Shown piece by piece: positions 8,467-20,045 of a stretch of 20,045 nucleotides of DNA. The position numbers and the translations under genes are program-made. The notes under the pieces were generated by a model that saw only the letters and a list, made by a program, of their open reading frames with translations, was not told the origin of the DNA and did no database searches. Origin of the DNA: Paraspadella gotoi (taxonomy: Eukaryota; Animalia; Chaetognatha); assembly GCA_051294375.1 (NCBI GenBank), contig JBJCIZ010000653.1, positions 1 to 20,045 of the forward strand. The letters run 5' to 3'. Positions within the stretch are counted from its first letter, which is position 1. Each line of letters begins with the position of its first letter.

Positions 8467-8649
8467 CATTTTTTCAACGTCGAAATTTGGAGTATGTTTA
8501 GTTTCTGGCTAATATTTTGAAACAAATTACCTGAATTATTTCAGTTCTTTTACTTTAATTCACACAATTTTCGAAAAAAATATTAAAAGTTGTTGCAAAA
8601 CAAAGATTCAAGAAATTAACAATGTTTTAACAAAGAAATTGGCACAAAT

Positions 8650-9633
8650 TCTCAACTGGATATAGTTACTAACCGAATAATATATTAATTTATAGAGGTT
8701 GGCTTTGATTTTGCCTTTAAAAGGATGTTTTGAGAGATAAAGCCGACCCAAACGGCAAGCCAAAGTCAACCAACGTGAATGCGAGATTGGGCTTTTAATT
8801 TGAGGTTCAATTGTTCCGCTTTGAATTGATTTAGCGACGAGGTATAGGTATTTTTGGTCGGAAGATAAATCCGAAAGAAGAACCTCTTCTTTTAACGGCG
8901 AAATCTTAGGAACATCTGAGACGGACAAAAATGTTTAATTCCAGTCTAAATTTTCGACTTTTGGCAAAATCTTTCCTATTGGTCCTTTAAATGAGTTATT
9001 CCCAGTAGTTGGGCCATCAACCGATTGAAAAAGGTGATGAAGACCTAACTCATTTGTATGCAAGCCGCACACGACCCAGTGAACTTTTTCTTCTCGTTCG
9101 TCTTCAATCTTTTTTACTATACCACCGTTTGGTCCAGTATTCACAGCAGTCGAGTCTACGCCGACAACTTTTAAATTTTTGGTCAGATCATTCTCATCAA
9201 GGAATTCCAGAATGGAGTCGGTCGTTGGTCCGGCTGCTTTCCCAGTTGGCGTCACGTGAGAGAGAAACCTTCCATCTGGCTGAGAGACCAAAACGATGTG
9301 CTCCATTTTTTCTTTTTGCTGCCGATGTTTTTCGTTTTCTTCGACGACTTTCAATGTTTTGATTTCTTTGCCGTCAAAGTATACGGCTTCAACAATGTCT
9401 TCCTTTAATCGTCGCGCTTCTTTTTTGCTGCAGTTTTCTCGGACTTTCTTCTTTTCATGTCGAATACGCTGGCGATCAATGACGCAGGAGGTGCTGTCGG
9501 ACGTGACGATGCCGAAGTCAATGAGGACAGCAGTTGCTATCGCCGCAGTCAAACGGTTTAACGCTCCCCATCGCATCGCTTCACGCGCTGTTGTAGGGAG
9601 AGGAGAGATTCGATACGAATCCTCGGAAATGGT
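8650..9633 (-). mobile_element. hAT-superfamily-like (hATm-type) DDE transposase fragment, pseudogenised
   Basis: Motifs AAIATAVLIDFG, VYFDGK, EHIVLVSQP, VDSTAVNTG, CGLHTNEL (CxxH), LSSDQKYL and SHSRWLT. ORFs 8935..9576 and 8608..8928 share a frame and are separated by one in-frame TAA. The frame is open upstream to 9633. The C-terminal part with the catalytic E appears to be missing. Confidence 0.8.
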
Positions 9634-10198: not shown

Positions 10199-10990
10199 CA
10201 ATGTACAAAAAATTTCTTATATGGCTCTATACCCAAATATTTATTTTTTAATATTTATTTTTAGAAAGGAAAGGAGTTCGACCCTATTCAGATTCGTCTA
10301 AAAACGAGTTCAGCTCTGAAGCGGCTGTCCAGCGGCTGTCCAGCTTTCTCTCTCTCTCTCTGTGTCTCTCTCTCTGTCTCTCTCTGTCTCTCTCTGTACG
10401 ATCTCTTGCGTGATCGTGCGTTTTTCGATAAATTCTGATTATTTTTCTCCTTCTAAAAACTTTTATTGTCGCCATTTATTCCGCGCTTTTTTCTCAATAC
10501 AAAATCCCAAATTTACATCCGAGTTTTTCGTGGATTTATTTTATGGCTCTGAGATTTAGTCAGAATATGTTTTATGTTTGGAAACAAAGTTCGTACACTC
10601 TCTCTCTCTTTCTCTCTCTCTCTCACTCATACACGCGTGTTTGTTTTATTTACGATGAATGACTCATCCCGTCAATGAATGACTATCATCGCATCAGTGA
10701 ATGACTATCATCGCATCAATCATTTGGTTATCTTCGCATCAATTATAGGTTATTATTGCATCAATTTTTGGTTATCATCGCATCAATTATTGGTTATCAT
10801 CGCATCAATTTTTGGTTAACCTCGCATCAATAAATTACTATTACATCAATCAATTACTATTACATAAATTAATCAATTACTATTACATCAATCAATCAAT
10901 TACTATTATATCAATCAATCAATCAATCACTATGGTTATCTTCACATCAATGAATGCTTATCATCATATCAGTGTATAATTATCATCGTA
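10199..10990 (+). repeat. Composite repeat copy 2 with expanded catcgcatcaat / atcaatcaattact minisatellite
   Basis: Collinear with 7545-8180. An inverted partial copy lies at ~12625-12707. Confidence 0.75.
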
Positions 10991-11091: not shown

Positions 11092-11263
11092 TTTTGCCGG
11101 TTTATGGTTTAACTACCAAACAATATTTCTAGTTATCAAGATCCATTAGTGAGGCAGTGAAATATGTTTATATTTTCTTTGTTTCATATCGATTCAAGTA
11201 TTTTTTTTTGAATTTCCACTTCATTATGATTTACTGCAATATGCAAATTAGATTATAGTACTT
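11092..11263 (+). repeat. Left arm of a ~170-bp inverted repeat pair (partner 13424-13607)
   Basis: tttgccggtttatggt..aactaccaaacaat...tttactgcaatatgcaaattagattatagtactt is the reverse complement of aagtactataatctaatttgcatattgcagtaaa...attgtttggtagtt..accataaaccggcaaa. Confidence 0.8.
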
Positions 11264-11458
11264 TTTCATTAATTTTCTTTGATAGTAAGGTCTGTCGAGA
11301 TCCTTATACTTTTAAGATTTTTTTCATTGCCTTTGATAGATATTTACAAAATAAAAGTTTTTATTTGTAATAACCACGATCATTTAATAATTCGGATATG
11401 TTTTGCTTCTTGGTTTTTGAACCTTTATGGGGGACTAAAATCTACCAACCGTTCATCA

Positions 11459-11531
11459 GCGGCCATTGGTGCCGGAGGCAAGTCATTCGCCTCCCAACCC
11501 AAAGGTCCAGGGTTCTAGCCCGGTAGCCGCC
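11459..11531 (+). pseudogene. tRNA-Gly(CCC)-like sequence inside the 5' LTR (Pol III promoter-like)
   Basis: Acceptor GCGGCCA/TAGCCGC, A-box-like TGGTGCCGGAGG, TCGCCTCCCA anticodon region as in tRNA-Gly-CCC, B-box-like GGTTCTAGCCC. The anticodon stem is disrupted. Confidence 0.65.
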
Positions 11532-11532
11532 T

Positions 11533-11608
11533 AGCAGTTAAGAGGAACGGGGCGCTTAACCCGCCTGTAACATGGTGTTACAGTCTGATCCGAAGCTCAG
11601 GGACTGCT
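11533..11608 (+). ncRNA. Candidate P5-type twister ribozyme-like motif, copy 1 (G>A near the putative catalytic GA)
   Basis: P5 AGCAGTT/GACTGCT, P3 CTGTAAC/GTTACAG, P4 TCTGA/TCAGG with loop TCCGAAGC, T1 CCG/CGG, T2 GC/GC, TAA cleavage motif. Confidence 0.4.
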
Positions 11609-11656
11609 TATATTGAACGGTTCTGTCATTAACAACAATTATCACTGTCTTTTCAT

Positions 11657-11670
11657 TGGTGAGCCTGACT
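11657..11670 (+). other. Primer-binding-site-like sequence TGGTGAGCCTGACT
   Basis: Begins with TGG (complement of tRNA CCA) 1 nt after the LTR's terminal CA. Cognate tRNA not identified. Confidence 0.6.
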
Positions 11671-11822
11671 TTTGAACACAACAGCAACAACACTTTCAGG
11701 CGACGGGCCTCAATTGGGGATGCAATTTCCGCCAACAACATATCAGGTCACATGCCTCAACTTGGTGACGCACTTTCCACCAACAACAATTCACTGAAGA
11801 GACGCAACAGACTTCTCCCTAC

Positions 11823-11834
11823 GGGAGGGGGGGA
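11823..11834 (+). other. Polypurine tract GGGAGGGGGGGA
   Basis: Pure purine run directly abutting the TG of the 3' LTR. Confidence 0.8.
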
Positions 11835-11869
11835 TGTATGGTGGACTAAAATGCACCAACCGTTCATCA

Positions 11870-11942
11870 GCGGCCATTGGTGCCGTAGGCAAGTCATTCG
11901 CCTCCCAACCCAAAGGTCCGGGGTTCTAGCCCGGTGGCCGCC
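11870..11942 (+). pseudogene. tRNA-Gly(CCC)-like sequence inside the 3' LTR
   Basis: Perfect 7-bp acceptor stem GCGGCCA/TGGCCGC and T-arm-like CCGGG-GTTCTAG-CCCGG, tRNA-like length. Confidence 0.7.
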
Positions 11943-11943
11943 T

Positions 11944-12019
11944 AGCAGTTAAGAGGGACGGGGCGCTTAACCCGCCTGTAACATGGTGTTACAGCCTGAT
12001 CCGAAGCTCAGGGACTGCT
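11944..12019 (+). ncRNA. Candidate P5-type twister ribozyme-like motif, copy 2
   Basis: As copy 1 but with GA-CGG intact and P4 CCTGA/TCAGG fully Watson-Crick. P2 (CCC vs GAGG) is imperfect and P1 is minimal. Confidence 0.5.
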
Positions 12020-12334
12020 TATATTGAACGGTTCTGTCATTAACACATAATAATTATCACTGTCTCTTCACCTTCATCAACCAGTTTTAATAGTTTTAAT
12101 AAATATTTGGATACTAACTTTGAGAGATAAAGAGAGAGGCAATTTTAACCTTGATAACTCTCACTCTCTCCGAATTATTAAATGACCATTGTAATCATAA
12201 ATAAAAACTCTGTTACTTTATAAATACTATTATTATTATATGTTTTATAAATTTAATAATATTTAAATATTATTTTTTGAAATGTTGAATTATTGTATAC
12301 TTAAGCCGAAACTTAATTTTAAATTTAACTCAAA

Positions 12335-12445: not shown

Positions 12446-12829
12446 TTTTTAACCTTAATTTTTTTTCTAGTCAACTTACACTTATTCTTAATTTATTCTT
12501 AACCATAATTTATTGTAACCTTAATTTTTACCCAAATATATATTGGTTGTACCAATTTCGTATAACAAAAATAAAAAATATGAAAAAAAAATCTTAAAAG
12601 CATAAGGATCGAGCCAGCTTTCGATGGTAACAAAATATTGATGCGATGATAATCATTCATTGATACGATGATAGCCATTCATTGACGCGATGAATCATTC
12701 ATCGTAATTTTTTTTTATCAATAGCAGAAAAGGCAACGCCTAACAAAAAAAATATATATATAATTTTAAAAAAATGTCACAACCGTTTACAATTTTTTTT
12801 TATTTAAAAAATTATAAAAACAGGGGATT

Positions 12830-15775: not shown

Positions 15776-16689
15776 AATCTGCGACGATCTATATTGCTTT
15801 TAGGATTGTAACTTGGCATCATTTTTTGCTTTCCATTCATTTTTCACTTAATTAATTAATTAATTAATTAAAACAATTATAGAATCATCATTAGATATTC
15901 TAATAGAAATAATAAAGATTCAAGTAAATGTGACTTATGTTTTTTCCATTTTAAACTCATTTCCACGGCACAATTCCGTCAAAACTTTATATCTAGCTTC
16001 TTCACAACACTTTCCTACCCGCTCACAAAATTTCATCTCAATCTAATTATGGGTTAAAATAAGTAAAAAGTTTCAAGTAAATGTGACTCATATTTTTTCA
16101 TTTAAACTCATTCCACTCGTACGTTTACACCGAACTTTATATCAAGATCGTTACACATTTTTCTACCCACACAAAAAATTTGAACTCAATCTATCCATCC
16201 AATTATGATTAATTAGAGTACTTATTGGTTAAAATAAGTAAAAATATTTTAGTAAATGCGACTATGTTTTTTCCACTTAAACTCATTTCCACTCACACGA
16301 TTCCGTCGAAACTTTATATCCAGCTTTTATCACACACCCCACACACAAAACTTCATTCCAATCCAACCAGCCAATAACGAGTTATTGGAGCTTTTTGCTA
16401 AGGTGGACGGATGGACGGATGATTGACTGATTAATTAATTATGATTAATTAATTGACTAATTGATTAATTAACTGATTAATTATTTGATTTATTAATACA
16501 TCCTGCATATACATTTAATATAAAAGGAAAAAGAATCATAATCAATTAGTGAAACAGGTTTTTTGTTTTTCCATTTAAACTCATTTCCACTCAAAAGATT
16601 CCATCGAAACTTGGTTTCCTGTTCAATCACACACTTTTCTACCTACATACAAAATTCCAGGTCAATCGATAATTAAATGGTAAAAAGCT

Positions 16690-17025
16690 AACTTGGTCAA
16701 CTTGCAATATTAATCAACTTGCATAATTTGGTCAACTGACATAATTTGGTCTACTGACATAATTTGGTCAACTGACATAATTTGGTCAACTGACATAATT
16801 TGCTCAATAAAATAATTTGGTCAAACCGGCATAATTTGGTCAACTAGCATAATTTTATCAAACTGGCCTAATTTGGTCAACTGGCATAATTTGGTCAACA
16901 GGCATAATTTGGTCAACTTGCAGAACTTGATCAACTTGCAGAATTTGGTCAACTGGCATAATTTGGTCAACTTTAAGAATTTGGTCAACTGGCATATTTT
17001 TGTCAATTGGAATAATTTGGTTAAT
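16690..17025 (+). repeat. 18-bp minisatellite (cataatttggtcaactgg/ga), about 18 units
   Basis: Direct reading. It produces the repetitive NLVNWH pseudo-ORF. Confidence 0.9.
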
Positions 17026-17839: not shown

Positions 17840-20045
17840 GATGAAAACGTTAAAAAAACCGAAAAACGACTTCTCCGTTTTCATTTCCTATGTAAAAAGA
17901 GCTAAAAACGTTAAAAACAACGAAAATGACTTTTCCAATGTCAAAAAAAAAACGTTAAAAACATCAAAAAACGTCTTTTCCATTGTAAAAAAGGATAAAA
18001 CGTTGAAAACACCAGAAAACAACTTCTTCAATGTAAAAGGAGATAAAAACTTTAGAAACAAAGAAAAACGCTTTTTCCAATGTAAAAAGAGATAAAAACG
18101 TAGAAAACACCGGAAAACGATATTTTCGAAGAAAAAAGAAATAAAAACGTTAAAAACTTCTGAAAACAAGATCATCGAGGTTGTTAAAATTGGGTGAGGA
18201 CAGTTACTTAAATACTTGTTTTTTTTACATTTTATTCAAAACAAACAAATTTCTCTTCTTGTTGACTTTTTATGTCTCCTTCTCTCTCTCTTTTCCCTCT
18301 CGTTTAATTATAGATGAGCCTTTCTCTCACCTCTTCAAAAAACTATAAGACGTTAAAAAACACCGACAGAACAACGCGACTTTTCCTTTGTAAAAAGTAC
18401 ATTGAAAACGCGAAGTACAAACAGATATACTAGAAACGATCTTTTTTTTCCCACCGATGGTAAAAGACATAAATGCATTAAACAACACCGAGACAACACG
18501 AAACTTTAACACAACTAAAAAAGACGATACAAAACTTTTAAAACAAAGACAAATACGGCTTTTTGCCACAATGTAAAAAACGACGATAAAAACGTAGAAA
18601 CACAAGCAACGACAGGCAATTTGATATTTTTCTCAATGTAAAAACAGAAATAAAGACACGTTAACAACTTTTCGGCATAGCAACTTTTTCAATACATAAA
18701 AAACGAGAATAACAAGGTTTAAAACGAATGGCGACAAACGACTTTTTCATACTGGTAAAAAGAGATAACAAACGTTACAATACACAAAAGCCGAGCACGA
18801 CGACACTTTATCCTATGTAAAGAACGAGAGAAACGTTGAAACACTAGCNNNNNNNNNNNNNNNNNNNNNNNNNNNNNNNNNNNNNNNNNNNNNNNNNNNN
18901 NNNNNNNNNNNNNNNNNNNNNNNNNNNNNNNNNNNNNNNNNNNNNNNNNNNNNNNNNNNNNNNNNNNNNNNNNNNNNNNNNNNNNNNNNNNNNNNNNNNN
19001 NNNNNNNNNNNNNNNNNNNNNNNNNNNNNNNNNNNNNNNNNNNNNNNNNNNNNNNNNNNNNNNNNNNNNNNNNNNNNNNNNNNNNNNNNNNNNNNNNNNN
19101 NNNNNNNNNNNNNNNNNNNNNNNNNNNNNNNNNNNNNNNNNNNNNNNNNNNNNNNNNNNNNNNNNNNNNNNNNNNNNNNNNNNNNNNNNNNNNNNNNNNN
19201 NNNNNNNNNNNNNNNNNNNNNNNNNNNNNNNNNNNNNNNNNNNNNNNNNNNNNNNNNNNNNNNNNNNNNNNNNNNNNNNNNNNNNNNNNNNNNNNNNNNN
19301 NNNNNNNNNNNNNNNNNNNNNNNNNNNNNNNNNNNNNNNNNNNNAAATGATTTTTCCAATGTAAAAAGAGATAAAAAACACCGAAAAATGCTTTTTCCAA
19401 TGTAGAAAGAGATAAAAACGTTAAATACACCGGCAGAGGACATTTCCTATGTAAAAAGAGATAAAAACGTTAAAAACACCAGCAAACGACTTTTCCAAAA
19501 AGATAAAAACTTTAAAAACAAAGAAAAACGCTTTTTCCAATGTAAAAAGAGATAAAAACGTTAAAAACACCGAAAAAGAGCTTTTCCAATGTAAAAAGAG
19601 TTAAAAACGTTAAAAACTTTGGCAAACGACTTTTCCAATAAAAAAAGAAATAAAACCGTTGAAAAACTCGTCAAACGACTATTCCTATGTAAAAAAAGCT
19701 AAAAACGTTAAAAACATCAAAAAACGACTTTTCTTTTGTAAAAAGAGATTTAAACGTTAAAAACACCGAAAAACGACTTCTCCGTTTTCTTTTCCTATGT
19801 AAATAGAGCTAAAAACGTTAAAAACACCGGAAAACGACATTTCCAATGTCAAAAGAGATAAAAACGTTAAAAACATCAAAAAATGTCTTTTCCATTGTAA
19901 AAAAGGATAAAAACGTTGAAAACACCAGAAAACAACTTCTTCAATGTAAAAGGAGATAAAAACTTTAAAAACAAAGAAAAAGGCTTTTTCCAATGTAAAG
20001 AGAGTTAAAACGTAGAAAACACCGGAAAACGATATTTTCAAAGAA
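17840..20045 (+). repeat. ~49-bp satellite (ttttccaatgtaaaaagagataaaaacgttaaaaacaccgaaaaacgac), interrupted at ~18170-18330 and by the gap
   Basis: tgtaaaaagag recurs at 49-bp spacing (e.g. 19541, 19590). Units are more degenerate at 18340-18848. Confidence 0.9.
18849..19344. other. Assembly gap (496 N)
   Basis: Run of N. Confidence 0.99.

Follow-up and report, generated by a model that had tools for sequence, protein, structure and literature searches.

Twister ribozymes have few assigned biological roles, and the DNA analysed here, a stretch of 20,045 nucleotides that we call the window, raises the question of what a pair of twister-like motifs could be doing when one is placed in each LTR of a miniature, non-coding retrotransposon. 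The twister fold of these motifs in the P5 order is well supported, both as a structure and by ancestry. Our main reading, to which we give roughly an even chance (probability of approx. 0.5) and which leans on calculated RNA folds, is that a P5-ordered twister in both LTRs cuts only when the two LTRs pair, and would in this way release a 411-nt RNA that is turned into a circle and reverse-transcribed.

Anatomy of the Element

Both motifs lie within a 645-bp high-copy TRIM at 11426–12070, one in each LTR (all features of the element are on the forward strand). The 5′ LTR (11426–11655, 230 bp, with TA…CA ends) and the 3′ LTR (11837–12070, 234 bp) share 94% identity, the differences being 10 substitutions and one 4-nt indel. 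Loose contig ends are found at both edges of the 3′ LTR, with 98, 99 and 21 of them at 11837 and 112, 126 and 33 at 12070 in runs X1, X2 and X9, respectively, and since approx. 100 contigs per larger run break there, the LTR ends are fixed at these two positions. The LTR start is TA and not TG (at 11837 and 11426 alike), and the loose ends show that the TG preceding the 3′ LTR is not part of it but a spacer that follows the polypurine tract (PPT). A 4-bp target-site duplication (TSD) flanks the element, the 4-mer at 11422–11425 being repeated at 12071–12074, and in each of two runs there is one contig that passes from 11425 directly into the downstream flank and has the 4-mer only once.

The internal region (11656–11836, 181 bp) is non-coding and includes a repeat with a 48-bp period at 11685–11788. 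It opens with a tRNA-Trp-like primer-binding site (PBS; 11656–11669), 12/14 bases of which equal the PBS of tRNA-Trp-primed Gypsy and Helenus elements in Kojima's Fig. S2; at position 11666, most aligned contigs have the base matching the tRNA-Trp-type PBS. The PPT, as read from the sequence, is at 11823–11834, 2 nt 5′ of the 3′ LTR. The TRIM hallmarks are present together (two LTRs, PBS, PPT, 4-bp TSD and absence of coding capacity), and, judged by its sequence anatomy, the element is a tRNA-bearing miniature LTR retrotransposon built like Helenus. A TSD of 4 bp and a PBS of the tRNA-Trp type would be in keeping with an animal host.

The tRNA-derived module occupies 11459–11531 in the 5′ LTR, where it is a putative Pol III promoter with A-box-like and GGTTC B-box-like motifs, and 11870–11942 in the 3′ LTR; its acceptor stem is paired at 7/7 positions, its anticodon stem is broken and its box A deviates from the TRGCY of Kojima. 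No tRNA was called in the window by ARAGORN, or by Rfam at the gathering score or at E ≤ 10. Being intact, the acceptor stem might be recognised by tRNA-processing nucleases. Self-priming by the LTR module was considered and rejected, its 3′ end having, by eye, no complementarity to the PBS. Two T4 runs are present in the window copy and missing from 98–100% of the aligned contig depth, so that Pol III read-through is possible; by a composition-based estimate, however, 411 unique bases would contain only about one T4 run by chance, and the absence of such runs is weak evidence. A common subfamily has linked changes at 11938, 11941 and 11944, i.e., in the 3′ acceptor strand and at the first P5 base, each of which gives a G·U with the window's partner base. 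The box A region at 11875–11886 resembles, possibly by coincidence, an LTR end joined to the beginning of the PBS with which the internal regions of many fish and bivalve Helenus elements open.

An autonomous partner element was not found, no family scoring above the curated Pfam cut-off among the 8 + 38 window ORFs and 5 homologs. On the reverse strand, 8608–9633 holds an interrupted ORF, which by impression we take to be possibly a transposase; it has 17 homologs of 408–833 aa with 32–66% identity, and no Pfam family above cut-off. The names of the 17 homologs of its 8935–9633 ORF are uninformative. Upstream of the TRIM, a separate short high-copy repeat at 11262–11324 has sharp ends and a T-rich upstream flank, with loose ends at 11262 and 11322/11324 in 7–51 contigs per run; one contig in each of three runs joins it to TRIM position 11786. 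The window also has tandem arrays at 16689–17021 (18 bp), 17884–18157 (49 bp), 19374–20032 (49 bp) and 10655–10841 (22 bp), the last of which has inverted copies at 12631–12707.

Structure of the Twister-Like Motif

A sequence-only reading of this DNA had proposed a P5-type twister-like structure at 11944–12019 and again at 11533–11608, and all of the elements that it listed were recovered at both sites in the same order. In the 3′ copy (11944–12019), P5 is formed by 11944–11950 and 12013–12019, the catalytic G is at 11957, T1′ at 11959–11961, P2 at 11971–11973, T2 at 11974–11975, P3 at 11976–11994 and P4/L4 at 11995–12012. L1, which supplies the general base G and the general acid A of twisters, has its conserved GA at G11957/A11958 and its N^AA as U11968-A11969-A11970; L4 has the form U-NNN-AA-GC. 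Watson–Crick pairing is complete in T1 (3/3) and T2 (2/2), with helices of 7 bp (P5), 7–8 bp (P3) and 5 bp (P4), and the 3′ copy is intact at the catalytic G and A, UAA, L4 and both pseudoknots. The U^A sites at which cleavage had been expected, 11968/11969 and 11557/11558, are also those that we predict. The 5′ copy (11533–11608) is 411 nt upstream and carries a G>A at the general-base position 11546, which the earlier reading had rightly seen as GGAA in place of GGGA; the window copy is, to this extent, partly decayed. In P1-type twisters, a G>A of the general base lowers mean cleavage from 0.76 to 0.54 (PMC11662667).

The motif departs from the twister consensus in several places. In P2, two Watson–Crick pairs are accompanied by either a C·A mismatch or a bulged A. 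P1 in cis is a single G·U pair and not a hairpin stem; its near absence, pointed out before, together with a palindromic tetraloop, is a more serious caveat than the shortness of P2. P4 is closed by A11999-U12008 in place of G-C, a pair that is essentially invariant in twisters according to a review (PMC5408937). The outer T1 pair is C-G here vs G-C in 34/36 and A-U in 2/36 phage motifs, the latter two pairs having been dictated by the search patterns. On the aligned letters, these two core departures (the outer T1 pair and the P4 closure) are two-sided, with Watson–Crick pairing kept. The C-G vs U-G difference in P4 between the LTRs, previously read as preserved pairing, is real but does not count as covariation evidence, being one of 10 substitutions.

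Comparison with Phage Twisters and Tests against Chance

No Rfam twister model, RF02684 included, matched the window at the gathering score or even at E ≤ 10, so the database search that had been proposed for the motif returned nothing, and the motif is not an Rfam-grade P5 twister. As comparators, P5 twister patterns were scanned over viral contigs. Those with a 4-nt P2 yielded 26 loci, and of 20 tested, 19 matched RF02684, 18 of them above cut-off. The pattern with a 3-nt P2 gave 31 loci with 33 distinct motifs, in which P2 pairs 3/3 in all except one (32/33), and 19/20 tested loci were above the Rfam Twister-P5 cut-off. Since phage motifs share the spacing and pass Rfam at this rate, a 3-nt P2 spacing is natural; P2 is indeed short, as the sequence-only reading cautioned, but with 33 distinct phage motifs of the same length this carries less weight than was given to it. 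Such 3-nt-P2 twisters are common in viral contigs, and one viral contig (L223:81–1523) has five P5-type pattern matches within 1.6 kb. The P1 span is 6 nt here vs at least 14 nt in every true phage motif retrieved. Searching the phage sequences for P5 twisters in which P4 closes with A-U gave two loci, both chance matches, and two looser twister patterns gave 25 + 25 viral loci that look chance-like by eye; these were discarded.

A covariance model (R1) of 36 phage P5-type motifs, with one misaligned row retained, gave eight matches in the window; the scores are weak, and the two LTR copies rank first (3′ copy, 14.3 bits, E 0.033, in another register) and second (5′ copy, 11.3 bits), the next match scoring 6.9 bits. 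The other register, which MAFFT and R1 prefer, uses a second UAA at 11979–11981; we rejected it, as its P2 pairs 2/4 and its T2 has a wobble besides one G-C, the 8-bp P3 must melt and the commonest family variant (at 11984) disrupts its P2. A relaxed P5-twister descriptor, scanned over both strands of the window, had the 3′ copy as its one match, the 5′ copy being missed because of the G>A. The same descriptor found 0/30,000 dinucleotide shuffles of the LTR, and 0/200,000 shuffles in which P3, P4 and P5 were held and only the 33 junction and loop letters were permuted.

An ordinary multi-helix junction in the LTR, with twister-like letters arising by chance, would agree with the Rfam result, with the MFE z-score of the motif region (only −1.9) and with the descriptor having been composed with the motif already in view. 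The helix-preserving shuffles and the top two ranks given to the LTR copies by an independently built P5 model make this explanation highly improbable. In addition, the P2-T2-P3 segment is, in a by-eye comparison, closely like Schistosoma retrotransposon twisters in the part of PMC8501958 consulted (Table 1). We regard the twister ancestry of the motif as very probable, and self-cleavage of its intact copies as probable.

Folding of One and Two LTRs

At 11962–11967, P1 is reduced to a lone G·U pair closed by a palindromic tetraloop, and the same self-complementary segment is present in the 5′ copy at 11551–11556; folding calculations predict that the two segments can form an inter-LTR P1 of 6 bp (−8.3 kcal/mol). 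Self-complementarity of this kind is found in 4/229 LTR 6-mers and in 2.5% of random 6-mers of the same composition. Since a P1 stem is missing, a competing hairpin at 11956–11976, with the cut site in its loop, is predicted to take up T1′, the catalytic G and T2. Predicted pair probabilities of this blocking hairpin are 0.73–0.99 in the monomer and 0.60–0.98 in the 411-nt circle, and it is 8–9 kcal/mol below the nested twister-compatible fold. In the monomer, T1′ has a predicted unpaired probability of ≤0.01, and in 18 distinct phage P5 motifs the first two T1′ bases are 0.62–1.0 free. The stand-alone monomer implied by the sequence-only reading is, on these predictions, probably not the working form, its T1′, catalytic G and T2 being sequestered.

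In an RNA with two LTRs, the strand-swapped twister-compatible fold (−151.3) is 17 kcal/mol lower than two monomeric ones (−134.1), and a double twister with swapped strands can be drawn for this RNA as a nested fold. For an ideal dimer, the energy by which the best blocked fold is favoured shrinks from 13.4 to 5.6 kcal/mol, with four pseudoknots uncounted. The unconstrained two-LTR fold (−166.4) retains the blocking hairpins, with a palindrome pairing probability of 0.0, and P5 swapping is possible for any direct repeat and is not peculiar to this element. According to the folding, the RNA ends are held together by P5 and the blocking helix, both in the linear monomer and in the circle.

A comparable arrangement has been described for axolotl retrozyme hammerheads, which have a one-pair helix III with a palindromic tetraloop and cleave much better as dimers (PMC7229834); the same work reports that RtcB can close RNAs with these hammerheads into circles in vitro. 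Dimeric minimal hammerheads of animal non-LTR retrozymes and Penelope-like elements (PMC7229834, PMC6765202) share with our motif the one-pair stem by the cut site and the palindromic tetraloop, through which two neighbouring copies can share a stem; they differ in ribozyme class and in residing in tandem repeats or pseudo-LTRs, and not in a true LTR element with PBS and PPT. On the modelled folds, it is more likely that the motif works as a strand-swapped pair than as a monomer.

A different way to understand the motif is as a slow, cis-active monomer twister that mainly forms the 3′ end of a linear Pol III transcript, with no circle; an RNA cut only at the 3′ LTR retains a repeat of ~99 nt (from the tRNA module to the cut) and could use ordinary strand transfer. 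P1 has been reported as dispensable in twisters (PMC11662667; PMC5408937), and among 1,948 P1-type twisters assayed, imperfect P1, P2 and P4 were tolerated (PMC11662667). Moreover, most copies are without a T4 terminator, therefore something else must end the RNA. We nevertheless consider such a monomer unlikely, as the predicted occlusion of T1′ is so unlike the phage motifs and the palindromic P1 loop is left without explanation; as the LTRs are identical at insertion, cutting selectively at the 3′ LTR would also depend on kinetics alone.

Variation among Genomic Copies

Genomic copies were viewed as pile-ups of public contigs aligned to the region, with 9,825, 20,229 and 1,189 contigs in three runs of organism A. 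The bin with the 5′ motif is ~30-fold shallower than the matching 3′-LTR bin, and because of this difference most copies resemble the 3′ allele and the G>A of the 5′ copy looks private. In a 95-bp alignment (6,777, 886, 380 and 1 contigs), variant rows were obtained only for 11971–11994, the catalytic G, T1′, the palindrome and L4 being probably outside this callable stretch. The three commonest variants there are all in the P3 loop: 11984 (54, 30 and 43% of depth), 11983 (12, 3 and 4%) and 11985 (4, 0.6 and 1%); the remaining seven rows are transitions below 3%, and there is no indel among the rows. In a longer alignment, the sole further row within the 3′ motif among the 40 of 159 rows listed is an A>G at the P5 end, giving a G·U. 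Within the callable stretch and these listed rows, the common variants spare P2 and T2, and no compensatory changes were seen among the copies, the family being highly homogeneous.

Elsewhere, run X10 (organism B) had two aligned contigs, neither covering the core, and run X11 had one, identical to the window; shares as small as these say nothing about habitat. A 16-mer scan of metagenome contigs gave 119 loci, two of which had a 25-nt blastn match and neither of which had the motif; a 20-mer scan gave no match in viral contigs, and one chance match, apparently inside a protein-coding gene, in prokaryote genomes.

The joint departures from the consensus (a 1-bp P1, C·A in P2 and A-U for G-C in P4), the blocking hairpin being more stable than the nested twister-compatible fold, the negative Rfam search and the want of compensatory changes in the rows just described could all be explained if this twister descendant is by now catalytically dead in this TRIM family, with a structural or packaging role or as the passenger of a young, homogeneous family. 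We regard this as rather improbable, since the 3′ copy keeps the catalytic G and A, UAA, L4 and both pseudoknots, the T1 and P4 departures are two-sided with pairing kept, and the common variants fall in the P3 loop, or make a G·U at the P5 end, and miss P2 and T2.

Proposed Mechanism

If the twister does cut only across paired LTRs, the cycle of the element may run as follows. Pol III would initiate in the 5′ LTR, on its tRNA-like module, and transcribe through both LTRs, and a single motif would adopt the blocked hairpin. As soon as the second LTR has been transcribed, the two motifs would exchange strands between their halves, with the palindromes sharing the 6-bp P1, and both U^A sites (11557/8 and 11968/9) would be cut as a pair, giving a 411-nt RNA without an R repeat. 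This RNA would then be ligated into a circle unable to re-cut efficiently; the circle would stay intact because only one motif is within it. A Gypsy-type element would prime with tRNA-Trp, reverse-transcribe the circle and integrate the cDNA with a 4-bp duplication. A similar route of circle reverse transcription and integration has been proposed for plant LTR retrozymes (PMC4918200).

Relation to Known Elements

Two groups of known elements come closest. Plant LTR retrozymes (Cervera et al. 2016; PMC4918200) are likewise non-coding, with a self-cleaving-type motif in each LTR, a PBS, a PPT and a 4-bp TSD; for both, a double cut would give an R-repeat-free RNA, and predictions have the ribozyme blocked as a monomer or in the circle. 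They have a type III hammerhead where our element has a twister fold, and a PBS of the tRNA-Met type where ours is tRNA-Trp-like; the tRNA module in the LTR is particular to our element, which is also smaller (645 bp, with a 411-nt unit) and has a less-paired circle. The predicted circle is 58% paired, below the >70% reported for metazoan retrozyme-like RNAs. No hammerhead was found in the window by Rfam, and in a 2026 preprint, seen in part, LTR retrozymes are the hammerhead-bearing, mainly plant elements (10.64898/2026.07.22.740005).

The likeness to Helenus/TRIMp3 (Kojima 2024; PMC10886601) lies in a TRIM of <1 kb, a tRNA-like sequence in each LTR with a GGTTC box B, PBS and PPT, a 4-bp TSD as in animal Helenus and a tRNA that is non-functional. 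The Helenus LTRs examined usually have the tRNA module close to their 3′ end, in many cases with a T run behind it, whereas here it is near the 5′ end of the LTR and followed by the ribozyme-like motif, with TA…CA termini. The element is accordingly Helenus by anatomy and, if the modelled folding holds, LTR-retrozyme-like in its working, and it is placed outside LTR retrozymes as defined, since it is without a hammerhead.

As for the ribozyme itself, the motif shares with type-P5 twisters (RF02684) the order P2′-GA-T1′-P1-UAA-P2-GC-(P3)-P4-L4, the catalytic G and A, both pseudoknots and, with many phage members, the 3-nt P2; it differs from them by the 6-nt P1, the A-U closing P4, the C-G swap in T1 and the 7-bp P5 that closes the motif. 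The Perere-3 T-variant twisters of Schistosoma mansoni, in the part of PMC8501958 consulted, are also retrotransposon-borne, with a weak P1 and a similar P2-T2-P3; they are of the P1 type and located at the 5′ end of a non-LTR element, while ours are P5-ordered and within both LTRs.

The words 'twister' and 'self-cleav' occur 0 times in the Helenus paper (PMC10886601), and no twister-like motif was found in the LTRs of its supplement in parts 1, 5, 6 and 7 of 11 and by motif-term searches, in a text where line wrapping may hide matches. A twister-bearing LTR element was not found in full-text searches of the open-access literature. The parts described here are each known already, and it is their combination that these searches did not find.

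Significance

We tentatively propose that the element is an LTR retrozyme outside plants, driven by a tRNA-type Pol III promoter and by a twister that acts only as a dimer; through its palindromic P1, cleavage would require the transcription of both LTRs, and the circle would be protected. The engineered Tornado system is a twister/RtcB cassette for the expression of circular RNA, and by analogy an element of this kind could, with similar reserve on our side, be seen as its natural counterpart. To our knowledge, there is no account of how TRIMs with a tRNA promoter end their transcripts when the same signals are present in both LTRs. If it is true that a twister pair cuts only across two LTRs, this would bear on the roles of twisters, on the range of LTR retrozymes and on the ending of TRIM transcripts; it would also be a natural dimeric twister, pointing to a class of ribozymes missed by Rfam.
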